From assembly GCA_965197645.1 (NCBI GenBank), contig OZ240219.1, forward strand, positions 864,001-928,000: 64,000 nucleotides of DNA, written 5' to 3'. This DNA is from Dehalococcoidia bacterium. GTDB lineage: Bacteria > Chloroflexota > Dehalococcoidia > Plut-88900. Under the pieces are notes generated by a model. That model made no database searches. It saw nothing but the letters and a program-made list of their open reading frames with translations, and was not told the DNA's origin. Numbering within the stretch: position 1 is the first letter of the stretch; every line of letters begins with the position of its first letter. Position numbers and translations under genes: made by a program. Positions 25,864 through 44,076 of this stretch are shown here, piece by piece.

Positions 25864-25942
25864 GACAAGTCTGGCCGTTAATCCAGCAGAGCCGTTCCCT
25901 CCTATCCATCCCACAGCCCCCTGCTCCAGTGACATTATCTCG

Positions 25943-25971
25943 TTGACACCATAGAACATATATTCTATCTT
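25943..25971 (+). promoter_or_regulatory. Sigma70-type promoter overlapped by a LexA-like SOS box
   Basis: TTGACA-17 bp-TATCTT, with TAGAACATATATTCTA (25952-25967) in the spacer and -10. One mismatch from GAAC-N4-GTTC. Confidence 0.72.
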
Positions 25972-26087
25972 TCGCCTATCACATTGGATTGCTCGGCCTG
26001 CTGGTTTGCATTGGAGAGAATGGAATGGAGAGGTTCCCCATTGTCATACAGCCGTGGTCGAGATTTGTCCAACGACGGGAGGAAAGC

Positions 26088-26264
26088 ATGGGCATGTTCC
26101 CCAACGCACTGAAGAAGGGTCACTGGAAGGTGGCCGCCCTGTGTCTGCTCATCGGGATGCTGCGGGTGGCGATGAGACTCTCGCGGGAGGCGCTACTGAA
26201 ACTGGTCCGTGCTGCGAGACCGGCCAACGCATCGGAGAGGAGATCGCATGTCGGAAGGCGATAG
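26088..26264 (+). CDS. Small hypothetical protein, first gene of the phage-like operon
   Basis: GGAGG RBS; 58 aa with a hydrophobic helix; overlaps the next ORF. Confidence 0.5.
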   Translation: MGMFPNALKKGHWKVAALCLLIGMLRVAMRLSREALLKLVRAARPANASERRSHVGRR

Positions 26265-26595
26265 AGGAGATCGTCGCGACGGCCGAAAGACCGGCGCGCA
26301 CGACTTTTACGCCTCCGCGGTGAGCGAGGCCGAGCTATTGCGGCTCGATGAGGCCCAGGAGATGCAGGGCCTGGACGGCGAGATCGCCCTGTTGAGGACC
26401 AGGCTGCTCCGGCTGGCCGAAAACCAGCCGGAGGACACCGCTCTGCTCTTCCGGGGCCTGGAGCTGTTGGTCAAGGCCGTCGGTGCCAAGTACCGCCTAT
26501 CGTCCAAGTCCACAGAGGACCTGAGTACGGCGATAGAAGAGGTGTTGAAGAGCATCGGTGGGGCCATGGGACTGGAGGGTTTCAGTGGGAACTGA
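26248..26595 (+). CDS. Putative terminase small subunit-like protein
   Basis: Lies upstream of TerL; helical; HDFY...LDGEIALLRTRL resembles the (K)HG(F/L)Y...LxxEIAxLR pattern of small terminases. Confidence 0.5.
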   Translation: MSEGDRGDRRDGRKTGAHDFYASAVSEAELLRLDEAQEMQGLDGEIALLRTRLLRLAENQPEDTALLFRGLELLVKAVGAKYRLSSKSTEDLSTAIEEVLKSIGGAMGLEGFSGN

Positions 26596-26815
26596 CGGAC
26601 TGAAGCAGACCATCGCCAGATTCAAGAAGGCTCGAAGCGGGCCTGTGAAGGCAGGTGTCAACCTCAACCCCGATTCGGCCTTCGAGGCGATGCTGGACAT
26701 TCGCCTTCAGGAGCTTCGACGCCAGGTGGGAGAAGTGAGGAGCCGGGTCAACGGCCTGTTCTTCTTCGTACTCGGTGCGGCGATCGTGCAGGTTGCTCTC
26801 GGCTTCTTCGCTTAG
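26585..26815 (+). CDS. Small coiled-coil protein with C-terminal TM helix (holin/XhlA-like?)
   Basis: GTG start after GGAGGG; heptad region RLQELRRQVGEVRSRVN followed by hydrophobic LFFFVLGAAIVQVALGFFA. Confidence 0.55.
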   Translation: MGTDGLKQTIARFKKARSGPVKAGVNLNPDSAFEAMLDIRLQELRRQVGEVRSRVNGLFFFVLGAAIVQVALGFFA

Positions 26816-26820
26816 CTCAA

Positions 26821-28214
26821 ATGCCCATCAAGCATCGACTGCGGCCCTATCAGGCGGAGATCGGAGCTGCCGTACTGGACAGCGTTCTCAACAAGAGAGG
26901 GCTGACCTTTTCGGTCATCATCTCCAGGCAGGGAGGCAAGAACGAGCTTTCGGCCCAGCTGGAGGTGCTGCTCCTGACCCTGTTCATGAACATCGGTGGC
27001 AGCGCCGTGAAGGCGTCGCCTACTTTCAAGCCCCAGACGGTCAACAGCATCCTGAGGCTCAAGGAGCGGCTCGACGATGCGGGCTACGGAGGGATATGGG
27101 TGTCCGAGATGAGCTACATGGTGAGGCTAAACAGGGCACGGCAGATGTTCTTCAGCGCCGATTCGTCCAGCCACGTCGTGGGCGCCACCGCCGACGTCCT
27201 GCTGGAGATGGACGAAAGCCAGGACATCTCCAAGGAGAAGTACAACAAGGAGTTCAAGCCGATGGGGGCGGCCACCAACGTGACCACGGTCCACTTCGGC
27301 ACCGCCTGGGACGACTCAACCCTCCTGGAGGAGGTGAAGCAGTCCAACCTGGAGCTGGAACGCAAGGACCACGTACGCAGGCACTTCGAGTTCGACTGGC
27401 AGGAGGTCGCCAAACATGTGCCCGAGTACGGGAGGTACGTCGAAGGCGAACGGCAGCGGCTGGGGAAGGACCACCCACTGTTTCTGACCCAGTACGGTCT
27501 GTTGCCGCTTCACGGAGGCGGAGGTTTCCTGAACGCTGCTCAGCGAGCCCAGCTGCAGGGCGATCACCATCGCCTAAGCAGGCCGGAGGATGGAAAGGTC
27601 TACGTAGCCGGCATCGATCTGGCGGGAGAGGCCGAAGAGGGCCGGGACGCCGAGCTTCGGGCCATCAAGCCCAGGCAGGACTCGACGGTGGTGACCATCG
27701 GTGAGCTGGACTACTCCCAGGCGGCGCCCCCGGCGGATGAGCCGGCGATCAGAATAGTGGAGCATTACTGGTGGACTGGCCAACCCCACACCGAACTCTA
27801 CTCTCGCCTCGTTGACCTGCTGAAGACGGTGTGGCGATGCAGGCGTGTCGTTGTGGACGCCACGGGTGTCGGGCAGGGGTGAGCAGCTTTCTGGTCCGGG
27901 CCCTGGGATCCACCGTCGTCTCTCCCTTCGTGTTTACGTCCCAAAGCAAGTCGAAGCTGGGGTTCGATCTGCTGGCGGCCGTCAACTCGGGAAGGATGAA
28001 GATGTACCGTCCCGATGGCACGGAGGAGTACCGGCAGTTCTGGACGGAGGTTGAGAGGGCCAAGAGCTTCTACCGGGCCAATCAGACCGTCAACTTCTAC
28101 GTCGACCCCAGCGATGGTGATGACGACTTCCTGATGAGCATGGCACTGCTGGCCCAGTCGGCTGGCTACAGGCGCAGGAAGGCTTCGGGCAGGCTACGGA
28201 AGGGCTACGAGTGA
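26821..28214 (+). CDS. terL: Terminase large subunit, split by a 1-bp frameshift at 27876-27879
   Basis: Walker A SRQGGKNE, Walker B LLEMDE, nuclease motifs AGIDLAG and VVVDATGVG. The C-terminal DDFLMSMAL motif continues in another frame (27831-28214 ORF). Confidence 0.85.
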
Positions 28215-28288
28215 TGCCGGAGGGCTGAAAGGCGAAGACGAAGCAGCGAAGAGGTTAGCCGGAGTTATGGATTGCGCAGGAGAAGCAG

Positions 28289-28633
28289 ATGGATTTGCGG
28301 GAGTTCAGGGATCTGGTCGTCGAGGGCGTGGAAAGCACGGAACATTCCGCTCCCTCTCAGCCCGACCCAGGCCGAGACAGCCGCCCGGAGTTCGTTAGAT
28401 ACCGGGACGTCGGCTGCGAGGTATCGGAGTCGTGTCTCAAGTGTCCGTTGCCCCAGTGCCGCTACGACGATCCCGGCTGGCTGCGCAGGCAAATCAAGGA
28501 GAAGCGGGACCGGCAGGTGATAGAGGCCCACGAAGGAGAGGGGCTGGCGCCATCGGAGCTGGCGAAGAGATTTGGAGTGAGCCGCCGCACCATCCACCGG
28601 ATACTCAAAGCGCACAAAGGTCAAAGAAGATAG
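28289..28633 (+). CDS. Cys4 motif plus C-terminal HTH DNA-binding protein
   Basis: GCEVSESCLKCPLPQC followed by LAPSELAKRFGVSRRTIHRIL (HTH). Confidence 0.75.
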   Translation: MDLREFRDLVVEGVESTEHSAPSQPDPGRDSRPEFVRYRDVGCEVSESCLKCPLPQCRYDDPGWLRRQIKEKRDRQVIEAHEGEGLAPSELAKRFGVSRRTIHRILKAHKGQRR

Positions 28634-28654
28634 TAAAGATTTGGAGATATCACC

Positions 28655-29977
28655 ATGGAAAACATGACATTGCCGCAGCAGATCGAGAGGATGGACCGGG
28701 ACAGGCTGAGGATCTACGCCGAAAACCTGGACTTCTACAATGGCCTCCAGTGGCCCGGCAGGGCCCGCCGGGGCGAGCGGCGCCTCACCTTCAACTACTC
28801 CAAGGCCTTCATCGATAAGATCACCTCATATCTCATGGCCGACCTCACCATTTCCGTCGAACCCCTGGACAGCACCGAGGAGGCGGCTCGCAAGGCCGGG
28901 GAGATCGACGAGGTCATACAGCAGGTCTACGAGGCCAACCATCTCCAGCAGCTCGATTTCGATACGGAGCTGGACACCGCCATCCTGGGCGACGGGGTCT
29001 ACAAGGTCACCTGGGACCCCCGGGAGCAGCAGGTGAGGGTCTCCGCGCCCGACGTGCAGGGCATCTACGTGTGGTGGATTGGAGACGATGTCACTCGCGT
29101 CTGGAGGGTCGCCAGCCGGTACAAGCTCTCGGCCGAGGAGGTCGAGCTTCTCTACGGCGTCAAGAACGCAGCCTCCGGGTTGAACGGCAGGAACAGGGAA
29201 TCGATGGTTGTGGAGGTGTGGACCGCCACCGGCCTGGAGATATGGATCGACAACGCGCTCCACGAGCAACGACCCAACCCCTACGGCTTCATCCCCTTCA
29301 TCGTGTTTCCCAACGTGAGGGAGCCAAAGAAATTCTGGGGCGTCTCCGACATCCCGGCCATCATCGAACCGTCCAGGGAGCTGAACCGGGCCTTCTCCCA
29401 GCTATCGATGATCCTGGAGCTGTCCGGCAACCCGATAGCCGTGCTGGAGAACGTCGAGGACGCCCAGGACATAGCGGTGCAGCCGGGGGCCGTCTGGGAG
29501 TTGCCGGAGCGGGCCCGGGCCTATCTGCTGGACCTGCTTCAGGGTGGCGGAGTAAAGCTTCACACCGATTTCATAGGCCTGGTGTACAGGGCCATTCACG
29601 ATCTATCGGAATCGCCCCGAACCAGCTTCGGCGATAACAGCCAGGGGCTGTCCGGCGTCGCGCTGGAGATGGAGCTGAATCCCCTGATCCAGAAGATCCG
29701 CCGCAAGCGACTGGTCCGGACGGCCGTTTATCAGCGCCGCATAGCGATGATCCTCAAGATACTGGAGCAGAAGCGGGGACTGAGCTTCGGTAACGTGCGT
29801 TCCCGCATCGTCTGGGGGCCGATACTGCCCCAGGACAGGGGCAAGCTGGCCCAGGAGGAAGAGCTGCTGGTGCGATCGGGCATCCACAGCCGCCGCCGCT
29901 CCATGGAAAACCTGGGCGTCCCCGATCCTGAAGCAGAGCTGACGCGGATCAGGGAGGAGGACCCTGCTGGCGCCTAG
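28655..29977 (+). CDS. Phage portal protein (SPP1 gp6-like)
   Basis: 440 aa; DFYNGLQW, FNYSKAFID, NPYGFIPFIVFPN, WGVSDI, SGVAL and W..ILP.D motifs. Confidence 0.88.
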   Translation: MENMTLPQQIERMDRDRLRIYAENLDFYNGLQWPGRARRGERRLTFNYSKAFIDKITSYLMADLTISVEPLDSTEEAARKAGEIDEVIQQVYEANHLQQLDFDTELDTAILGDGVYKVTWDPREQQVRVSAPDVQGIYVWWIGDDVTRVWRVASRYKLSAEEVELLYGVKNAASGLNGRNRESMVVEVWTATGLEIWIDNALHEQRPNPYGFIPFIVFPNVREPKKFWGVSDIPAIIEPSRELNRAFSQLSMILELSGNPIAVLENVEDAQDIAVQPGAVWELPERARAYLLDLLQGGGVKLHTDFIGLVYRAIHDLSESPRTSFGDNSQGLSGVALEMELNPLIQKIRRKRLVRTAVYQRRIAMILKILEQKRGLSFGNVRSRIVWGPILPQDRGKLAQEEELLVRSGIHSRRRSMENLGVPDPEAELTRIREEDPAGA

Positions 29978-30798
29978 TCTCGTTTCCTGGCCAGATACGT
30001 ATAGTAGTTGCAGGCGGCGAAGAAGACGCCTCGGTCCGCGTTGGAGCGCTGGTCCTCCAGCCAGGCCTCCACCTGTTCCGAGGGCAGGACGCCGGCGTCG
30101 GCCACCATCGGGGCGTAGATCTCGGCGAAGTTCTTCCAGAACCTACCGCTCCCGACCTCCGAGTAGACGTTGGGCGTGACGCTTATCAGGTCCAGCCCAA
30201 CCTCTCCCAGCAGCTGCGGCATCTCCCGCATTACCAGGGGGTTACTGACCATCACCCCTATCATCCCCTCCTCCATCTTCCTCCCCAGCTCCCTGTCCGA
30301 GCTGCCGAAGGAGAGGGAGGCGTAGTCCCCATCGAATATGGCAATCGTGCCGCCGGTCCTGACCAGCCGGGACATCTCCTTGAGCACGGCCGCCGGTTCC
30401 GTGACGTGGCTTATCAGCGTATGGGCCATGGCTGCATCGAAGCCGGCGTCCGCCAGGCCGGTGGAGTGAGCATCTCCGATCCGAAACTCGATTTTCCCGC
30501 CGATTCCCTCCTCGTCGGCCAGACGTCGGGCGACCTCTATGAAGATGGGACTGTGGTCAACCCCGACGATCCGACCCTGAAAAGCGGGTCGTTGAGCCAG
30601 CCTCCGGGCACCAACTCCCGTCCCGCATCCCATGTCCAACACGCTGGCGTGGGGATCGAGGGCGATGGCTTCCAGGTAATCGTTCATCCACCGGATGTAG
30701 TTGGGGTCCCGACCTCGGAACTCCAGCCGCTCGATCATCGAGTTTAACGTGGAGTCGTCCAGGTCGGTGGCGTATTGAAAGACATCTCGAGGGGTCAT
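29974..30798 (-). CDS. Class I SAM-dependent methyltransferase
   Basis: VLDMGCGTG, GVDHS and GDA...FD motifs; GGGAGG RBS. Confidence 0.9.
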   Translation of the reverse strand: MTPRDVFQYATDLDDSTLNSMIERLEFRGRDPNYIRWMNDYLEAIALDPHASVLDMGCGTGVGARRLAQRPAFQGRIVGVDHSPIFIEVARRLADEEGIGGKIEFRIGDAHSTGLADAGFDAAMAHTLISHVTEPAAVLKEMSRLVRTGGTIAIFDGDYASLSFGSSDRELGRKMEEGMIGVMVSNPLVMREMPQLLGEVGLDLISVTPNVYSEVGSGRFWKNFAEIYAPMVADAGVLPSEQVEAWLEDQRSNADRGVFFAACNYYTYLARKRD

Positions 30799-30871
30799 GG
30801 CTACCTCCCGGTCCAATTATAACCCTGCGATTCGTCGTCGTTGGAAGGTCGGGCGTTGTGACACCAACCGG

Positions 30872-30901
30872 TTGACTGTATTAGAACTGATATTCTACTC
30901 T
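30872..30901 (+). promoter_or_regulatory. Second promoter overlapped by the same LexA-like box
   Basis: TTGACT-18 bp-TACTCT, with TAGAACTGATATTCTA (30882-30897). Confidence 0.72.
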
Positions 30902-30940
30902 GGCCACACGTAAATCAGCCCTATTTCACGGGAGGTGTCT

Positions 30941-31378
30941 ATGGCCGAGGATACGATGGAGGAAGTGGTGGAACAGACCGAGACGGATGTAGAGGACGCT
31001 CCGGGCTTCCAGGCCGATACCGGTACAAGCGTAGAGGAGCTGGAGGGCCAGGTCAGCCGGCTTCGCGCCGACCTGGAAAAGCGGGATGAGGAGCTGGCTT
31101 CGTTGAGAGAGCAGATGACCAACTCCGCGGCCCGTTACAGGACAGCCATACTGTCCGGCGCACCCGAGGTGCCCGAGGAGCTGGTCCGCGGAGACACGGT
31201 GGAGGAGCTGGACGCATCCCTGGTCCAGGCCAGGGAGATTGTAGAGAAGGTCGCCCAACGGCTCGGTTCCCAGGTGGCATCCGAGCAGGTGCCCGCAGGC
31301 TCGCCGCCTCGTAGGCCGCCGGACCTGGTCGCAATGTCGCCCCACGAAAAGATCCTGTACGCACTGCAGAGATCGTAA
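30941..31378 (+). CDS. Putative capsid scaffolding protein
   Basis: Acidic N-terminus, coiled coil, C-terminal MSPHEKI helix; immediately upstream of the capsid gene; GGAGG RBS. Confidence 0.7.
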   Translation: MAEDTMEEVVEQTETDVEDAPGFQADTGTSVEELEGQVSRLRADLEKRDEELASLREQMTNSAARYRTAILSGAPEVPEELVRGDTVEELDASLVQAREIVEKVAQRLGSQVASEQVPAGSPPRRPPDLVAMSPHEKILYALQRS

Positions 31379-31422: not shown

Positions 31423-32313
31423 ATGGCTTTAACTTTAGCGGAGGGCGCAAAGCTCTCAAACGACGTACTAGTTGCCGGGGTAATCGAGACCATCATCAAC
31501 GAAAGTCCGGTCCTTCAGGCTATGCCCTTCATCGAGATAGTGGGCAACAGCCTGACCTACAACCGGGAGAACGCCGCACCTTCAGTGAGCTTCTACAACG
31601 TGGGCGACACCTGGACAGAGTCCACCCCCACCTTTACCCAGGTGAGCGCCACGCTGAAGATACTGGGCGGAGATGCCGACGTGGACAACTACCTCTCCTC
31701 CACTCGCAACAACGTGCAGGACCTGGAAGCGGCGGTGGTCCAGCTCAAGGCCAAGGCCCTTCAGCAGAAGTTCGACGACACCTTCATCAACGGTGAAGTA
31801 ACCACCGATGCCAAGTCCTTCGACGGCATCGAAGAGCTGACAGTCACCAAGCAAATAGTGAGCATGGGCGCCAACGGCGGCACCCTCACCCTCGAGAAGC
31901 TGGACGAGCTGATAGATAGGGTGAAAGGCGGCAAACCCGATATGCTCATCATGAGCAAGCGCAGCCGCAGGAAGCTCTCCTCGCTGGCCCGGGCCGCAGG
32001 CAGTGGAGTCGTGGAATCGGACCGGAACGAGTTCGGCATGATGGTCCAGTTCTACGATGGCATCGCCATCGGCATCAGCGACTGGGTCTCCGACGCCAAG
32101 ACCGTGGGCACCAACAGCGACTGCTCTACAGTCTACGGCCTTCAGTACGGCGAAGGCGGCGTTGCCGGCCTTAGCGGCCCCGGTGGGTTGCAGGTGGAGC
32201 GAATCGGGAGCCTCGAGACCCGGGACGCCACCCGCACCAGGGTGAAGTGGTACGTGGCGTTGGCCCTGTTCAACACCCTCAAGCTGGCCAAGCTTACCGG
32301 AGTCAGGGACTAG
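31423..32313 (+). CDS. Major capsid protein (HK97-type)
   Basis: 296 aa; GVIETII..SPVL..MPF, YNRE, LGGDADVD, FINGE...FDGI and LDELID motifs typical of phage MCPs; position after the scaffold gene. Confidence 0.88.
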   Translation: MALTLAEGAKLSNDVLVAGVIETIINESPVLQAMPFIEIVGNSLTYNRENAAPSVSFYNVGDTWTESTPTFTQVSATLKILGGDADVDNYLSSTRNNVQDLEAAVVQLKAKALQQKFDDTFINGEVTTDAKSFDGIEELTVTKQIVSMGANGGTLTLEKLDELIDRVKGGKPDMLIMSKRSRRKLSSLARAAGSGVVESDRNEFGMMVQFYDGIAIGISDWVSDAKTVGTNSDCSTVYGLQYGEGGVAGLSGPGGLQVERIGSLETRDATRTRVKWYVALALFNTLKLAKLTGVRD

Positions 32314-32404: not shown

Positions 32405-33043
32405 ATGACCACGATAACCGATATCAGAGGCAGGGTCCGCACGGACCTCCACGATGAAGACTCGCAGGACTACCGCTGGACCGATGCCGAGCTGGACAGG
32501 CACATAGGCCGGGCGGTGAACGAGCTCAGCCTGGCGATCCCCCTGGAGGCGAAGGCTACACTCACCACCGCGGCCGGCAGCAGGGACGTCTCCATAGCCG
32601 GTCTCTCGGATCGGGTGGCCGTCGAAGCCGTGGAGTACCCCGCGGGAAAGTATCCGCCGGCCTACGTCAGGTTCAGCATCTGGATGGACACGCTGACCAT
32701 GCACATCGATGGCGTCCCCGTGGCCGGTGAGACCGTCGCCGTCCACTACACCAGGCCTCATACCCTGGATGCCGCCGGTTCGACGGTGCCTCCGCCCCTG
32801 GAGGAGCTGGTGGCCACCGGCGCAGCCGGCTACGCTGCCCTGGAGTGGGCCAGCTTCGCCACAAACCGGATAAACGTCGGCGGCGAGGAGGTATGTAGGC
32901 AGTACCTGGCCTGGGGGCAAGACCGGATCAGCGCGTTTCTGAGTGGCCTGGCGGAACGTGGTCGCAGGAACACGGTCAGGGCACGGAGCCTTTACACCCC
33001 CTCCCGCCTACCCGAGGACAAGACTACGGTGATGGGGCCGTAA
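32405..33043 (+). CDS. Putative head-completion/adaptor protein
   Basis: N-terminal IRGRVRTDLHD...RWTDAELDRHIGRAV helix pattern typical of phage adaptor proteins; follows the MCP gene. Confidence 0.65.
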   Translation: MTTITDIRGRVRTDLHDEDSQDYRWTDAELDRHIGRAVNELSLAIPLEAKATLTTAAGSRDVSIAGLSDRVAVEAVEYPAGKYPPAYVRFSIWMDTLTMHIDGVPVAGETVAVHYTRPHTLDAAGSTVPPPLEELVATGAAGYAALEWASFATNRINVGGEEVCRQYLAWGQDRISAFLSGLAERGRRNTVRARSLYTPSRLPEDKTTVMGP

Positions 33044-33044
33044 G

Positions 33045-35036
33045 ATGAGGACCCTGTCATCGACTCTTCTGGAAGCCCAGAAAAGCGCTTCCAGCGTGCC
33101 CCACGTGAAGGTAGAAGTGTTCGACCGGATCGGCGGCGTGCCTCGTCTGCGGTTCGAACGGCACTACACCGGCTCCGAGCCCGAGGACTTTCACGCCGCC
33201 ACCATACCCTCGGACGGCTCTCTCATCAGGGCCAGAGTGGCTGGCTCCGGCCGACATTACATCTACTTGCAACGGGTCCCCAATCCCACTCCAACCAGCG
33301 ATTTTGGCTCCTGGACCCGGGCGATTCAGGTCTCCAGTGTCGCCAACATGGCCATCTGCAGCGAGGGTTCCAGAGTGCTGTTGGCCCACGTCTCCTCCAA
33401 CAAGAGGAGCATTTACGCCAGGCAGAGCGATGATAACGGACAGACCTACGGGCACAGCGTCCTGATAGCCACCTCAGCAACATCCGTCAAGTGGATGGCT
33501 GTTGCCCTGAAACCCGATGGTACCGCGTTATTCATCTACACCACGGGCGCTGCCAATCTATACACGTCGAAGCGGACCTCCAGCGGATGGTCGAATCCCA
33601 GGCCGTGGGCCAGCGGGATGTCGGATATCAGCGGCGTCAACGTGGTCTATGACAACGACTGGAACGTGGTCTTGGCCGGCAAGGATAGTCGGGGCAGGCC
33701 CGGCGTGTGGACGGCCATCTATGGAGATGGATCGTCCCGAGCGGCGAACACCTGGTCGAGCCGTAAAAACCTGACCATAGCCGACAACGGTTCCGGTCTC
33801 ACCTTCGAGTCCCCCTTCATCGCCAAGCCCGGCTCCTATCGGGTCACCTTCGTCGAACGATACAGGGGGTCCTCCTCCTACGATCTGCCGTTTCTCTCTT
33901 TCACCATGCCCAACTCCGGTTTCTCCAGTAACTTGTGGCGAGAACCCGTCCCCCTCAATCTCACCAGTACGAGGGGTATAGCCGTAGCCCACGGCGCCGA
34001 TCGGGTCTGGCTCTCTACCCCCTCCGGAGTGTGGTCGGCTGTGCGAGACGCAGCGCCCCTGGACATCAGCCAGGACGTGCTGAGCGTCAAACAGTCTCTA
34101 TCGGCCTACTCCGGTGAGATGAAGATGGAGCTGCGCAATGATGATGGGAAATACAACAGCGTCGGCGCCGGCCCCCTGGACATGCTGCAAAAAGGATCGG
34201 AGATACGGCTGGGCCTTGGCTATCGTACCAGCGCCGGTATCGAGGTCTCCTCCGGGTCCACCGTTTGGATAGAGAGCTGGGAATACCGGCGTCACGGCGG
34301 GAGGTCCACCATAGCTATCACCGCCAGGGACTGGTGGGGACTGTTGGAGACCTGGAAGGCTCGCAGGCAGTTCACCTGGGCGGAGGGCGACAGCAACGTT
34401 GCACCTCTCCTGGCCGCCGTTCTGGCCCGCGCAGGACTGGGGTTTGTCCCCGGAGCCTCGGTAAGCGCCGCCATGTCCAGCCACTCTCCGTCGTTCACCA
34501 TACATCCCGGGGAGTCTGCGGCTACGGCCGTGAAGCGTCTGCTATCGATGGTGCCGGACGTGGTGTTCTTCTCCTTTACGAGGTGCACCTCTCTCAACCC
34601 CCGCGCCTCCGACCCCAGCGCCTACAGCTACGGCACCGACCACCCGGTCCTGGAGTCCCGACACCGAGACCCGGCGCCTGAATTCAACCGGGTGCAGGTC
34701 TTCGGCGCATCCGTATTCAACGAGAGCTATGACTGGACCGACATGCACCTGGTCTATGATCGACTCAGGCAGGTACACGACCTCAATCTGAACACCTCGC
34801 AAAAGGCCGTCGCCCAGGTGGCCAGGGAACTGAGGCACCAGACAATGAGCAGCGACCGGGGCGAGATCACCGTCCCCGCCAACGCCGGTCAGGAGCTCTA
34901 CGACGTCGTGGACGTGACCGATCCGGCGGCCGGCATGCAGGCGATCAAGCGGCGGGTCATGGGCCTCCGCACCGAGTACCGGACGAATGGCAACCGGCCC
35001 GGATTTACCCAGACCCTGTATCTGGGCAATGTGTAA
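33045..35036 (+). CDS. Virion structural protein: propeller-like N-terminus plus baseplate hub-like C-terminus
   Basis: Asp-box-like SDDNGQTY and Trp/Gly beta repeats in the N-terminus; LRNDDGKY, NRVQVFG and ELYDVVDVTD...TQTLYLG resemble hub/Tal C-termini. Confidence 0.55.
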   Translation: MRTLSSTLLEAQKSASSVPHVKVEVFDRIGGVPRLRFERHYTGSEPEDFHAATIPSDGSLIRARVAGSGRHYIYLQRVPNPTPTSDFGSWTRAIQVSSVANMAICSEGSRVLLAHVSSNKRSIYARQSDDNGQTYGHSVLIATSATSVKWMAVALKPDGTALFIYTTGAANLYTSKRTSSGWSNPRPWASGMSDISGVNVVYDNDWNVVLAGKDSRGRPGVWTAIYGDGSSRAANTWSSRKNLTIADNGSGLTFESPFIAKPGSYRVTFVERYRGSSSYDLPFLSFTMPNSGFSSNLWREPVPLNLTSTRGIAVAHGADRVWLSTPSGVWSAVRDAAPLDISQDVLSVKQSLSAYSGEMKMELRNDDGKYNSVGAGPLDMLQKGSEIRLGLGYRTSAGIEVSSGSTVWIESWEYRRHGGRSTIAITARDWWGLLETWKARRQFTWAEGDSNVAPLLAAVLARAGLGFVPGASVSAAMSSHSPSFTIHPGESAATAVKRLLSMVPDVVFFSFTRCTSLNPRASDPSAYSYGTDHPVLESRHRDPAPEFNRVQVFGASVFNESYDWTDMHLVYDRLRQVHDLNLNTSQKAVAQVARELRHQTMSSDRGEITVPANAGQELYDVVDVTDPAAGMQAIKRRVMGLRTEYRTNGNRPGFTQTLYLGNV

Positions 35037-39892: not shown

Positions 39893-40138
39893 ATGCGAGG
39901 ACCTAACGGAGAAAAGAGACCTAGGGACCCCATCGCCCGTGCTGTCATGGTAGCAAAGATAGCTACTGGCGAGATTGAAGAACAGCTGCCATCTAAGCGG
40001 CGCAACGGCGGCCTGAAAGGCGGCCCTGCCCGTGCTAAGGCCCTCAGCCCAGAGCGGCGCAGGGAGATAGCAAAAAAGGCTGGTTTGTCGCAAAAGAAAA
40101 ACTTGACTGCGGAGGAGAAGGGCGGAATCGAACCGTAA
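39893..40138 (+). CDS. Small basic protein commonly associated with IS1/IS1595-type elements
   Basis: KRPRDP...IATGE...GGLKGGPARAKALSPERRREIAKKA. Confidence 0.75.
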   Translation: MRGPNGEKRPRDPIARAVMVAKIATGEIEEQLPSKRRNGGLKGGPARAKALSPERRREIAKKAGLSQKKNLTAEEKGGIEP

Positions 40139-40204
40139 TGCTAGGTTGAGCTAGCGATTCGGGGGGTCTCATCCCCCGTCCCGTCCAACGGGCAACCCTC
40201 TCTC
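40110..40204 (-). tRNA. Non-canonical tRNA-like gene (allo-tRNA-like; anticodon GAG)
   Basis: Minus strand folds into an acceptor stem GAGA(G)AGGG/CCCTTCTC, D-stem CCCGT/ACGGG, 6-bp anticodon stem around the loop ATGAGAC, a long variable arm and a 3-bp T-stem with loop TTCGATT. Confidence 0.6.
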
Positions 40205-40296
40205 AAGGCCCTGGCTTAGTCCAGGGCCTTCCCTATTCTATCAACCCCCTATACGGTATTGACAAGCTGAGAAGCCTGAACGTAAGGTGTACGCGA

Positions 40297-40409
40297 CTTG
40301 ACGGTCATTCGTGTCGTAATCCGGCTGGGCATTCGAGGCAAGGTAAGCCAGAGGGATTTCGCCCTTTCATGCCCCCTCTGGCCCTGCCGGGTTGCGGATG
40401 ACCGTCAAG
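40297..40409 (+). ncRNA. Predicted long structured RNA or leader
   Basis: Nested stems CTTGACGGTCAT/ATGACCGTCAAG, CGTAATCCGGC/GCCGGGTTGCG and GCCAGAGGG/CCCTCTGGC, just downstream of TTGACA-18-TAAGGT. Confidence 0.45.
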
Positions 40410-40474
40410 CACCGAAATCCTGATGGCTCGGAGGGGGCACCAGCTTGTCCCCTTCGCACAAAGGGGGCACGTGC

Positions 40475-40858
40475 ATGGCGCTCACAGATAATCGGCAAGT
40501 TGCCCGAATAGGTTTCCGTATCGTAGGCCCGCTGATGATGATAGTCACGGCGGGTTTTTTGGTTTTCGGCGGCGTCATCCTGGGGTTTGCCTTGGACAAA
40601 GAAGCACCGCATTTCACCACCAGGCTCTTCGAGAAATATCCCTGGTGCTTCGACGGATACCCCGATCAGATATTCAGCCCTCGCGACTGCCTGGCTCGAT
40701 TCATACAGGCGGAGGCGCATCGCGGGGCGGACTACTGGGACCAACGGCGTCTCCAAGACGAGGCCGACCTACTGGCAATGGATGAAGAGGAACGGGCCGC
40801 CGTTCTTGAAGCCAGGTGGAGCGCCTACCGTCTGTGGAAAGACACGGACGGCCTGTAG
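40475..40858 (+). CDS. Hypothetical membrane-anchored protein (IS cargo)
   Basis: N-terminal TM helix; GGGG RBS. Confidence 0.5.
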   Translation: MALTDNRQVARIGFRIVGPLMMIVTAGFLVFGGVILGFALDKEAPHFTTRLFEKYPWCFDGYPDQIFSPRDCLARFIQAEAHRGADYWDQRRLQDEADLLAMDEEERAAVLEARWSAYRLWKDTDGL

Positions 40859-40876
40859 CTAGGTGAAGGAGAAAGT

Positions 40877-41080
40877 ATGGCTAATGAAGTAGGGTACTGC
40901 CAGCACGTCGGCGGATGGACAAACAAGGGATGCCAGAACGAGGCCCTATCCGGTGACACCTTCTGTCATGCACACCAGGTACAGCGTGACCAAGACGCTG
41001 AAAATCGCAAGTGGATGAAACGGCTAGGCCTAGGCATTGTCGTGCTCGCTGTTCTCATCACTGCCATTGTCTACATATAG
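40877..41080 (+). CDS. Small Cys/His zinc-finger-like plus TM protein (IS cargo)
   Basis: C-x10-C-x9-C-x2-H and a C-terminal hydrophobic helix; AAGGAG RBS. Confidence 0.6.
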   Translation: MANEVGYCQHVGGWTNKGCQNEALSGDTFCHAHQVQRDQDAENRKWMKRLGLGIVVLAVLITAIVYI

Positions 41081-41138
41081 GCTGTAGGCCCTACAGTAAG
41101 GCCAGCCAGCAATAGGGCAACAAGAAACGGAGGACACC

Positions 41139-41390
41139 ATGGACGGAGACATACAGGCTTTTCCAGTGTCGGAGGTCGAGCACGTAAACGGGATGATGAC
41201 TCTTGTAGCAAAACACCCCGGCATGACCCTGCGGGACTACTTTGCAGGGCAGGCCCTAAGTGGTCTACTTGTATGGCATGAAAGAGACTGGCCGACAGCG
41301 GTAAGGGCAGCGTACCAGGCCGCCGATTTCATGTTGGAAGTGAGAACAGCTAATGAAGGTACCGGAGAACCTGCAAGAGAGCAAGCCTAA
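41139..41390 (+). CDS. Phage-type small conserved protein (IS cargo)
   Basis: AFP...GMTLRDYFAGQAL...AYQAADFML motif, common in phage hypothetical proteins. Confidence 0.7.
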   Translation: MDGDIQAFPVSEVEHVNGMMTLVAKHPGMTLRDYFAGQALSGLLVWHERDWPTAVRAAYQAADFMLEVRTANEGTGEPAREQA

Positions 41391-41574
41391 ACTCAGGCGA
41401 CTCAGGCCCATCACCGTCCAGGATATTGACCTGCCCTTTGCTGCTGTCTTGGCCCTGGTGTTCAAGTGGAGTGTAGCTGCTGTGATAGTCGGGGCGGGTT
41501 GGGCTGTAGTGGGTGTTCTGCTCTGGTATCTGGTCTGGAATATGCTGTCACCGGAGACGGCTCCGCGGTTCTAG
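41353..41574 (+). CDS. Small membrane protein (IS cargo)
   Basis: VQDIDLPF...KW.VA followed by a TM helix. Confidence 0.5.
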   Translation: MKVPENLQESKPKLRRLRPITVQDIDLPFAAVLALVFKWSVAAVIVGAGWAVVGVLLWYLVWNMLSPETAPRF

Positions 41575-41759
41575 GGTAGGTTCCGGGAGGTATTGACACC
41601 CTGCCAGCTTGTCAGGCCTGCCCTGCGGAATATGGCCCGGTTTTTACGTTCCTGGCGGCGGCGCTCAGCTTGTTCCTCTCGCAGTTCCTTCTCATGTCGC
41701 TCAGGGTCAATGCCCAGGGCAAGAAGGGTTTGCCGGTCTCGTGGAGTATCATTAGGCAT
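41571..41759 (-). CDS. Small charged hypothetical protein (IS cargo)
   Basis: GGAGG RBS; 62 aa, Arg/Glu-rich helix. Confidence 0.45.
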   Translation of the reverse strand: MPNDTPRDRQTLLALGIDPERHEKELREEQAERRRQERKNRAIFRRAGLTSWQGVNTSRNLP

Positions 41760-42017
41760 AAGGCCTCCTAGCCAGTGGCCTTGACAAGCGGCGGCTAGGG
41801 CCTTAACATGGAGTCAACGTTGGGTTAACGTTGTTTGTCAAGTCCGCTGGACTCTCAAGAAATCCCTTTGCCGAGGGGTTTCTTGCTATCTATTCAGTTC
41901 CCTCTATCATATCACGCCTGGCCGCCAACTGCTCACAGCCATTGAAATAACTATAAACTCTTGACATTTACGCCTGGACCCTGTATTATTTAGCTAGTAT
42001 TAAGACAGGGGCAGGCA

Positions 42018-42914
42018 ATGAATAAACTACCCGAAAACCTACGAATACAGGCCCTCAACATGCTGGTGGAAGGCTCGTCCATGCGCTCCATCAGCCGAGT
42101 GCTGGGCATTACGCTCAACTCCGTTACGAAGCTGCTGGTGGATGCTGGAGAAGCGTGTGTTGCTCACCACGACGCAACGGTCCGGGAAGTCACGGCCCGG
42201 CATGTTCAGTGTGATGAAATCTGGTCGTTCTGCTACGCCAAGGCGAAAAAGGCTCCCCACGCTCAGGGCATCATCGACAGGGCTGGGGATGTCTGGACCT
42301 GGACGGGCATAGACAGCGACACCAAGTTGATTATCTCTTGGCTGGCTACACCTGGTCGTGACTCCGCCTTTGCCCTGGAGTTCATGGATGACTTAAGGGC
42401 CAGGTTAGCTAACAGGGTACAGCTCTCCACAGATGGTCACAGGGCCTACTTGGAGGCTGTAGAAGGGGCGTTTGGGGGAGACGTGGACTACGCCCAGCTT
42501 ATCAAGCTCTACGGGCCGTCTGAGGAAGAGCAGTCGGGTGGACAACGGCGGTACTCTCCCGCTCACTGCGTGGGGATTCGCAAGGTGGATGTGGTTGGCA
42601 GGCCCAACATGGATGAGCTTAGCACGTCCTACGTGGAGCGTCACAACCTTACAATGCGAATGGCTATGCGTAGGTACACCCGGCTCACTAATGCCTTTTC
42701 TAAGAAGCTAGAGAACCACATGCACGAACTGGCTCTGTACTTTACCTGGTACAACTGGATCAGGCCTCACAAGAGCCTGCTAGGGAAGACCCCGGCACAG
42801 AAGGCGGGGCTGGCTGACAGGGCCTACGATATACGGTGGATAGTCCAGATGATGGACGCCAGGGTACCGAAGCAGAAGCGGGGACCGTACAAGCCAAGGG
42901 TCACGGTGGCCTAG
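42018..42914 (+). CDS. IS1-family DDE transposase
   Basis: N-terminal HTH (LVEGSSMRSISR), QCDEIWSF, STDG, TSYVERHNLTMR..RRYTRLTNAFSKK and YNWIRPH motifs. Confidence 0.93.
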   Translation: MNKLPENLRIQALNMLVEGSSMRSISRVLGITLNSVTKLLVDAGEACVAHHDATVREVTARHVQCDEIWSFCYAKAKKAPHAQGIIDRAGDVWTWTGIDSDTKLIISWLATPGRDSAFALEFMDDLRARLANRVQLSTDGHRAYLEAVEGAFGGDVDYAQLIKLYGPSEEEQSGGQRRYSPAHCVGIRKVDVVGRPNMDELSTSYVERHNLTMRMAMRRYTRLTNAFSKKLENHMHELALYFTWYNWIRPHKSLLGKTPAQKAGLADRAYDIRWIVQMMDARVPKQKRGPYKPRVTVA

Positions 42915-43121
42915 AAGCGCTTCGCGGCGAACGTCACGAGCAGTTTTAACACCAGGTGGCGGCGCTCTCGCTCACTCTCGGCCAGATAGTCCAAACGCCG
43001 TGTGGCTGTCATCAGTAATTTCCTACCTCTCTTGCCTTGTTTAGCACGGTCTATAGCTTGTCAAGGGCATCTTATCTGGTTTATTATTCGTCTCACGTTA
43101 CACTAGTAGCGGAGGGGCGAA

Positions 43122-43601
43122 ATGACAACCAAGAAAGAAACCGCACCTAGTCGCGACCTCACTTTCGAGTGGGGACGGACCGCTTCGGCAGACCTGGCCA
43201 AAATCGGTGATACCATTGACTCTCGGGCGATAGGTATCTTCGCAACGGGCAGTCTCATCATCGGCGTTTCAGCTACAGTTGTTGAGACTATCTTGGACTG
43301 GTCGAGCCTAGCATTACTGTTCGTTGTGGCTGGTTATCTGGCAACAGCGGTGTTCGGTTTGCTCATAGTGTTTCCACATCCTGCACCAGGCCCGGACAAC
43401 CCCACGACACTTAGGAAACGGTACTGGCCTATGCCACCTGCAGAAGCCCAAGAGGAGTACTGGCAGTGGGTGGAAGATGAGTACGAGCAATGGTACCCCA
43501 AAGTGAACAAGAAGGGGCGTTATCTCAGGTACGCTATCGGCGGGCTAGGTGTAGAGGTTTCAGCACTTATTGTCTGGGTTATCCTCGTTACTGGCTTCTG
43601 A
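43122..43601 (+). CDS. Three-TM membrane protein (IS cargo)
   Basis: IDSRAIGIF, two TMs, a soluble loop, then NKKGRYLRYA and a C-terminal TM. Confidence 0.6.
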   Translation: MTTKKETAPSRDLTFEWGRTASADLAKIGDTIDSRAIGIFATGSLIIGVSATVVETILDWSSLALLFVVAGYLATAVFGLLIVFPHPAPGPDNPTTLRKRYWPMPPAEAQEEYWQWVEDEYEQWYPKVNKKGRYLRYAIGGLGVEVSALIVWVILVTGF

Positions 43602-43842
43602 CGAGTCCTTTTCTCTGGGCGAACCTTTCTCTGACCCCATGCTCAAGCGGATGATGTCAGCGTCGGCCATAGGCTTCATTCGCAAAACGGAGTCTTTAGG
43701 ATTGCCGCCAGTGCCTTCATCCTGTGAGTCCCCGCCGTTGCCGTCTTTTTCTTTCTCAGTCATGTTTGTATCCTCCAAGGCACTCATTGTCGGAAATTGA
43801 TTGGTCAGTGTCAATACCCTATACGAAAGAAAGGAAGACACC

Positions 43843-44076
43843 ATGGAAGGTCACACCCACATCATCCAACTAAGCGCCCCTAACATCGAAGTGAAAGCCA
43901 AGGAACTCTATCCGGCAGGAGACAGCAGCACGCCGAACAAGTTCGTGGTTCAGTGTCCCGATTGTGGTACTGAGGTTCTCGAATTCAAAGGGCAGGTCAA
44001 AGAAGTGTTCCATATCCCTGGCAGTGGGCTAGACAAGATACGCAAGGGGCTGGAGGAACAAAAGCCTAATCCCTAA
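43843..44076 (+). CDS. Small protein with a CPDCG knuckle (IS cargo)
   Basis: HTH...CPDCG potential metal site; AGGA RBS. Confidence 0.45.
   Translation: MEGHTHIIQLSAPNIEVKAKELYPAGDSSTPNKFVVQCPDCGTEVLEFKGQVKEVFHIPGSGLDKIRKGLEEQKPNP

Follow-up and report, generated by a model that had tools for sequence, protein, structure and literature searches.

Candidate LexA operators in both promoters of a phage-derived particle locus of a Dehalococcoidia bacterium

The LexA repressor of Bacillus subtilis (DinR) is described as recognizing the consensus 5'-GAACN4GTTC-3' (PMC4234289). In the Bacillus thuringiensis temperate phage GIL01, host LexA is reported to serve as the phage repressor, with gp7 and a LexA homologue acting at a late promoter (PMC4551915, PMC6182141). 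Work with RcGTA, the gene transfer agent (GTA) of Rhodobacter capsulatus, has reported that LexA is needed for efficient particle production, an effect described as indirect and exerted via CckA (PMC6363796). The subject of the present analysis is a locus of phage-like packaging, head, adaptor and tail genes on a 64,000-nucleotide (nt) stretch of DNA from a Dehalococcoidia bacterium (assembly GCA_965197645.1, contig OZ240219.1, positions 864,001 to 928,000 of the forward strand), hereafter the window, and in particular two 16-bp elements found in the two promoters of this locus. A sequence-only reading of the window had proposed that both elements are sites for the host's LexA. Comparison with the promoters of lexA and of repair genes, in the same genome and in its relatives, makes it likely that both are functional operators of the single LexA of this host, and particle production would then probably be switched on by DNA damage.

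Two boxes that match the lexA motif of the genome

The locus consists of two operons. Behind the first promoter (site 1) lie a 128-amino-acid (aa) open reading frame (ORF), a large terminase-like gene (terL), a gene for a helix-turn-helix (HTH) protein and a portal gene; behind the second (site 2) lie genes for a scaffold-like protein, the major capsid protein, a head-tail adaptor and a tail protein. Box 1, TAGAACATATATTCTA, stands within the string TTGACA-cca-TAGAACATATATTCTA-tctt at 25943-25971, and box 2, TAGAACTGATATTCTA, within TTGACT-gtat-TAGAACTGATATTCTA-ctct at 30872-30901, sequences and coordinates just as the sequence-only reading had given them. The two boxes are identical at 14 of 16 positions. 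The nearly identical placement claimed for them, overlapping the -10, was also borne out: the box starts 3 nt (site 1) or 4 nt (site 2) past the -35 hexamer, and at both sites its last two bases (TA) are the first two of the putative -10, placing it between the -35 and the -10 with a 2-nt overlap with the latter. Site 1 was scored as a σ70-like promoter by a consensus scan (TTGACA-17-TATCTT, 10/12 matches), and at the -10 position of site 2 the relatives have TATTAT or TATCAT.

Both sites do share the motif TAGAAC-N4-ATTCTA that had been described as a palindrome, but the palindrome is not exact: the reverse complement of TAGAAC is GTTCTA, one G>A change away from the ATTCTA of the right half, and the exact palindrome is TAGAA-N6-TTCTA. 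An equivalent description of both boxes is GAAC-N4-GTTC with a single G>A mismatch in the right half. TAGAAC-N4-ATTCTA occurs exactly twice in the whole genome (3,211,320 bases in one contig, 61% G+C), at box 1 and at box 2. With up to one mismatch allowed, the same pattern has two matches in the window against 0.03 expected, and none of 100 shuffles reached two.

A single gene of the genome encodes a LexA_DNA_bind domain, and the same gene is the only one with Peptidase_S24. Its product can be aligned from end to end to Thermotoga maritima LexA (3k2z; E 3e-32), and the Ala-Gly cleavage site and the active-site Ser and Lys are all kept. Judged by its sequence, this LexA looks cleavable. A box of its own, TAGAACACCAGTTCT, ends 11 nt before the lexA start codon. 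In a set of 12 genomes of the order, lexA was located by tblastn in 11, and TAG(A/T)AC-N4-GTTC(T/C/A) precedes the gene at the same place in all 11; in this clade T or C often replaces the second A of GAAC. Among ten more distant Dehalococcoidia, reached via their capsid loci, GAAC-N4-GTTC lies about 30 nt before the lexA start in 8-9 of 10.

The same motif reaches beyond lexA. Seven sites in the genome are within one mismatch of TAGAAC-N4-GTTCTA, and all seven fall between genes; by a crude ORF map, coding sequence makes up about 87% of the genome. They precede lexA, a radical-SAM+HhH repair gene, an SplB-like (spore-photoproduct-lyase-like) radical-SAM gene, two unknown genes and the two particle promoters. 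Tandem boxes also lie upstream of an ImuB-like gene that is followed by a 1,045-codon ORF, which one might guess from its size and position to be DnaE2. The motif is thus found at lexA and at repair and mutagenesis genes (radical-SAM+HhH, SplB-like, ImuB-like) of the very genome that carries the particle locus. The boxes of the radical-SAM gene are kept in most relatives, and the ATTCTA variant itself occurs in the radical-SAM repair promoters of two of them, G009 and G004 (AAGAACAAATATTCTA and AAGAACAACCATTCTA, directly past TTGAC). The layout of the particle promoters, with TTGACA, 1-4 nt, the box and a terminal TA that opens the -10, recurs at the ImuB-like, 107-aa and SplB-like promoters. 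Taken with the one LexA_DNA_bind/S24 gene and the lack of a cI-type repressor, the motif at lexA is consistent with the earlier proposal that host LexA, rather than a phage repressor, would act on the locus.

A check through a weight matrix built from SOS promoters had been suggested along with that proposal, and its outcome agrees with it. A symmetrised matrix was derived from 18 distinct boxes of lexA and radical-SAM promoters, none of them from the particle locus, and used to rank about 3.2 million positions. ImuB-like homologues of the relatives were dropped as a reference; they are paralogues, 37-40% identical, with uncertain starts. With all 18 boxes, site 1 ranks first in the genome (24.9 bits) and site 2 third (21.3 bits), and the best 13 genome matches are all intergenic. 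When training sites that bear ATTC were removed, site 1 ranked second and site 2 fifth. Both boxes therefore score high with a matrix of the clade's own lexA and repair-gene promoters.

Conservation of the boxes and their wider occurrence

The capsid gene is single-copy and is present in 10 of the 11 other genomes of the order, at 74-80% identity. A box with no more than two mismatches is found in 7 of 10 capsid promoters of the family (the window included) and before 19 of the 22 terL copies, and the conservation at the same promoter position of orthologous clusters that the sequence-only reading had proposed as a check is indeed there. The distance between box and TTGAC is identical in all ten family capsid promoters. 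The canonical GTTCTA half occurs in four of the ten (e.g. AAGAACGCACGTTCTA and GAGAACACTAGTTCTA), and a perfect core is found in orthologous capsid promoters of other species (e.g. AAGAACGCACGTTCTA and TAGAACGTCAGTTCTA); the boxes of terL promoters have the ATTCTA right half in nearly all cases. When promoters of the four genera are compared, sequence identity does not extend beyond GTGACA, TTGAC, the box and the -10.

The first of these elements belongs to a second conserved block, G(T/C)GACA(T)-N7-8-(CCC)TTGAC, which lies upstream of the box. The composite of GTGACA-N7-9-TTGAC and a box occurs, genome-wide, only at the two particle promoters.

The survey was also extended to the capsid loci of 76 species across Dehalococcoidia, each with at least 500 nt of upstream sequence. 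A box with up to two mismatches was found at 33 of the 76, and in these 33 promoters the upstream element appears as G.CA....CCCCTTG.C. By the matrix, 31 of the 76 loci have a site of at least 14 bits in the 900 nt upstream, where the background for such sites elsewhere in the same loci is 0.02 per 900 nt. Among capsid relatives in IMG/VR, 9 of 33 loci have a strong box (at least 16 bits) some 2.1-2.7 kb upstream of the capsid gene; these loci are fragments of 4-21 kb, in which free phages are not separable from mis-binned chromosomal loci.

Stand-alone copies of terL carry the promoter as well. Genomes of one genus, g4, have 2-5 terL copies each, 55-60% identical to the terL of the window. 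Six g4 cassettes were fetched (from G005 and G006), and five of them lie outside the syntenic packaging operon; those five have terL without a portal or HTH gene, three of them together with the 128-aa ORF, which accompanies terL in such extra cassettes of the relatives. Four of the six fetched cassettes stand behind a promoter with the GTGACA element, the -35 and the box.

LexA-type boxes were also seen at other places in the genome of the window (G000, contig C1). A strong one, AAGAACATATGTACTC, lies at G000:C1:12756, 21 nt before a DUF5131 (phage Gp37/Gp68-like) gene that is probably another member of the SOS regulon. Two copies of an element, about 75-85% identical over about 7 kb, occupy G000:C1:1953000-1960000 and 3034000-3041000 and encode Rad52-like, RecE/Cas4-like exonuclease, SSB, RadC and TSCPD proteins, with a TrbL/VirB6-like gene just upstream of the first copy; they carry the boxes TAGAACATGGGTGCTA, TAGCACGAATGTTCTA and TGGTACAACCGTTCTA, and their promoter resembles the g4 packaging promoters. 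Near-identical boxes, AAGAACGC(C/T)TGTGCTA, lie at G000:C1:1903277 and 2952643 between divergent pairs of small XRE-type HTH genes; these boxes possibly act as switches for two related mobile elements, or the loci may resemble toxin-antitoxin systems and be controlled by the SOS response. The recA promoter (G000:C1:929950-930250, about 2 kb past the end of the window) has a TCGCA-N18-TGCGA inverted repeat just after its TTGACA, which suggests another regulator at that gene.

The proposed switch and competing explanations

The arrangement would make for a simple switch. Each operator is placed in the -35/-10 spacer of one of the two particle-operon promoters, where a LexA dimer bound to the box would obstruct RNA polymerase as long as the cell is undamaged. 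Upon DNA damage, RecA-stimulated self-cleavage of LexA would release both promoters together. The conserved G>A change in the right half could make these weaker sites that are released early. The conserved GTGACA element might add a second, positive and particle-specific input, possibly via the Mor/sigma-r4-like HTH protein of the cluster.

A number of observations weigh against LexA control of damage-induced particles. To begin with the boxes themselves, neither has the perfect GAAC-N4-GTTC core (both read GAAC-N4-ATTC); site 2, with its weak -10 TACTCT, was not reported by the consensus promoter scan; and a matrix of lexA boxes only, which ranks site 2 fifth, puts site 1 in 11th place. The recA gene, on which the sequence-only reading had counted as a reference SOS promoter, has no GAAC-type box in the 550 nt upstream, and uvrA has just a weak candidate (AAGAACGGTATTTCTT, 125 nt upstream) that was unused in the matrix. 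A 2002 study in J Bacteriol reportedly found that LexA of Dehalococcoides ethenogenes binds GAAC-N4-GTTC at lexA and uvrA, and not at recA, with which the lack of a box at recA here would agree.

Further points come from the relatives. No box with two or fewer mismatches was found within 900 nt upstream at 43 of the 76 class-wide capsid loci; at many of these 43 the right half GTTCTA alone remains (e.g. GCGCAC-N4-GTTCTA), and about 25 of them have nothing recognisable upstream. Three of the ten family capsid promoters read cAGAAC-N4-ATACT(A/G), the right half having turned into a TATACT -10, and distant lexA promoters have TGTGCTA-like -10 sequences that lack a palindromic partner. Part of the right-half conservation may serve the promoter, as its -10 region, and not a repressor.

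The last point concerns the product of induction, in that derepression may not give DNA-filled particles in this strain with its frameshifted terL. Compared with G001, one nucleotide is missing near 27870-27877, which divides the gene between two frames; in relatives it is a single frame throughout. Contigs of the sequencing run that matches best, X1, possibly the source sample, have the window sequence at the deletion. Contigs of X3, X5 and X7, from two further studies and about 3-4% divergent, have one extra base at 27870-27872; close strains therefore have an intact single terL frame. The deletion is either a true strain-specific frameshift or an error common to the assemblies of one sample. 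If it is real, the strain may make empty particles or none, although both of its promoters are intact.

The retained right halves bear on an unlikely alternative, in which what is conserved would mainly be a promoter core particular to the lineage (spacer and extended -10), with no repressor, and the palindrome a by-product. In many species GTTCTA followed by TnnT is retained where the left half is degenerate (GCGCAC, GCGTAC), and the TGTGCTA-type -10 regions of the distant lexA promoters point the same way. Against it stands the left half, TAG(A/T/C)AC, which is kept across four genera though it lies in the spacer, normally unconstrained in σ70 promoters. Many species have palindromes that are close to perfect, TAGAACGTCAGTTCTA and AAGAACTAATGTTCTA among them, and both sites rank at the top with a matrix trained on boxes of lexA and repair genes.

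It is also conceivable, if quite improbable, that the palindromes serve as operators for the 114-aa HTH protein encoded in the cluster itself, which would autoregulate both operons, and that the likeness to LexA boxes is coincidental or reflects mimicry or competition. The HTH gene does lie inside the packaging operon and is conserved with it, but the same motif is found at a distance from the cluster, upstream of lexA and of ImuB-like and radical-SAM repair genes, as well as upstream of extra terL cassettes without an HTH gene in their vicinity. Moreover, the families that the protein matches are sigma-70 region 4, Mor and late activators, not dimeric palindrome repressors, and the non-palindromic GTGACA element would be a better candidate for its target. 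Finally, it is very improbable that the boxes are relics of the SOS switch of an ancestral temperate phage, no longer relevant in a decaying locus: a frameshifted terL in this strain and the absence of adaptor and tail genes beside the capsid gene of G001 would suit decay, but the capsid gene is 74-80% identical across genera, single-copy and in fixed synteny with the MFS and SDR genes, the terL frame is intact in close strains, and the boxes are kept in 19 of 22 terL promoters. Repression of both operons by host LexA remains the preferred account of the two boxes.

The locus compared with known particle systems

The features of the locus are collected in Table 1. On one side it is flanked by the cellular genes for an acyl-CoA dehydrogenase, HIT and HD proteins, and on the other by those for an MFS transporter and an SDR protein; the HIT and HD genes are neighbours of the packaging operon not only in G000 but also in G001 and G006, and 8 of 9 fetched loci retain the scaffold-capsid-adaptor-tail-MFS-SDR order. 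G001 (locus L014) keeps the scaffold gene, the capsid gene and the box, with no adaptor or tail gene adjacent and the SDR genes directly next. The methyltransferase gene between the two operons is not part of the particle set and has no counterpart at the same place in the loci of nine relatives. The gap between portal and scaffold genes is a variable slot, which in the relatives L014 and L016-L018 holds 3.2-4.1 kb unmatched by genes of the window. The 280-nt leader between site 1 and the 128-aa ORF contains a 58-codon ORF (26088-26264), which has a good ribosome-binding site and encodes a hydrophobic core. Elsewhere in the window, positions 40001-44000 have a reduced G+C content (0.54-0.56 against 0.61).

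Table 1. Promoter elements and genes of the particle locus (positions in the window)
Feature	Position	Strand	Basis
Upstream GTGACA element, packaging promoter (GTGACA-N8-TTGAC)	25929..25934	+	Genome-wide composite scan, conservation
-35 hexamer TTGACA, packaging operon promoter	25943..25948	+	Sequence, consensus scan
Box 1, candidate LexA operator	25952..25967	+	
Putative -10 TATCTT, spacer 17, shares 2 nt with box 1	25966..25971	+	Consensus scan
128-aa ORF before terL, possible small terminase	26209..26595	+	No Pfam/PHROG match
Large terminase-like gene (terL), in two frames here (26821-27882, 27831-28214)	26821..28214	+	Named from position and size; no Pfam or PHROG match
114-aa protein, C-terminal HTH (sigma-70 region 4/Mor/late-activator-like)	28289..28633	+	Pfam HTH_23 2.2e-06, Sigma70_r4 6.4e-06, Mor 0.0022; PHROG phrog_836 late transcriptional activator 5.6e-06
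Portal protein, SPP1 Gp6-like	28655..29977	+	PF05133 7.3e-17; phrog_64 3.2e-34
SAM-dependent methyltransferase, between operons	29974..30816	-	Methyltransf_31 4.8e-22
Upstream GTGACA element, capsid promoter	30858..30863	+	Sequence, genome-wide composite scan
-35 hexamer TTGACT, capsid operon promoter	30872..30877	+	Same position in 10/10 family loci
Box 2, candidate LexA operator	30882..30897	+	
Putative weak -10 TACTCT, spacer 18	30896..30901	+	Read from sequence
Scaffold-like protein	30935..31378	+	Weak phrog_1793 head scaffolding 0.0051; conserved position before capsid gene
Major capsid protein, HK97 fold family, SU10-like	31423..32313	+	Pfam Phage_capsid 1e-08, SU10_MCP 2.7e-08; PHROG phrog_212 2.5e-72
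Head-tail adaptor, SU10 adaptor family	32405..33043	+	PF24175 3.7e-11
663-aa tail (nozzle-like) protein	33045..35036	+	phrog_1887 tail protein 1.6e-05; in 8/9 relatives' loci

In the Pfam and PHROG view of the locus ORFs, no integrase, replication gene or lysis module was found. What is present is a set of phage genes for structure and packaging whose place in the chromosome is fixed, with no genes for integration or replication among them. The locus has the look of a domesticated, GTA-like particle set and not of a prophage, because it is single-copy, has fixed neighbours across genera, is flanked by cellular genes and lacks integration and replication genes. A broader reading, held with somewhat less than even confidence, is that the class Dehalococcoidia carries a domesticated podovirus-like particle system that would form a new, independent GTA lineage. 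One composite promoter (GTGACA, -35, LexA box, -10) would tie together the modules of this system, which are scattered and in some genera include several stand-alone terminase cassettes per genome, and DNA damage would directly trigger particle production and possibly gene transfer. A search of open-access full texts and bioRxiv found no published description of a GTA-like system in Dehalococcoidia or Chloroflexota.

Dehalococcoidia are abundant in aquifers, sediments, soils and sponges, and almost all of them are uncultured. Should the boxes be LexA operators, DNA damage would offer a simple and testable trigger for learning what the particles do, be it gene transfer, killing or something else, and the locus would join the other independent instances of domesticated viruses, as one whose regulation follows a clear logic. 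Should the class-wide GTA reading hold as well, damage-triggered particles, and possibly gene transfer, would have to be reckoned with in slow-growing, uncultured bacteria.

Set beside the described systems, the boxes themselves are closest to the Gram-positive-type SOS box (the "Cheo box"), with which they share the inverted repeat spaced by 4 nt, one exact GAAC half, the overlap with the core promoter and, in this genome, the autoregulatory arrangement at lexA. They differ from it in the ATTC of the right half and in the flanks, which lengthen the motif to TAGAAC...(G/A)TTCTA.

The GIL01 phage, as described, is similar in that host LexA boxes in phage promoters take the place of a cI-type repressor. 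However, GIL01 is a replicating linear prophage, whereas the locus here has no replication or integration genes in view and is syntenic among host genes across genera. An autonomous temperate phage genome of that type, with replication and lysis modules, is not what the window holds; only packaging, head, adaptor and tail genes lie between the cellular genes. Unlike in GIL01, moreover, the boxes here are directly on the structural and packaging operons.

With RcGTA, the locus shares phage-derived head and packaging genes that are inherited with the chromosome and, here probably, controlled by host regulators. The particle type differs, being podovirus-like here (SU10-type capsid and adaptor) and siphovirus-like in RcGTA. 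Direct control of phage and bacteriocin genes by LexA is already known, and the influence of LexA on RcGTA, as far as it has been described, is indirect only. Here, in contrast, a particle set that is inherited vertically, lacks an integrase and is spread through Dehalococcoidia appears to have a site for the host SOS repressor within each of its two structural-gene promoters.

SOS-induced phage-tail bacteriocins and colicins offer a last parallel, as lethal or altruistic products that are wired to DNA damage. The Pseudomonas R-tailocins, though, are described as being under PrtR, a LexA-like repressor, and not under LexA itself, and the locus here differs from tailocins in that it goes beyond tails and has genes for heads, a portal and a terminase. 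Against this background, the operator itself is nothing unusual among Gram-positive-type LexA boxes, from which it departs by one mismatch, and the novelty is its target, namely both promoters of a class-wide particle set.

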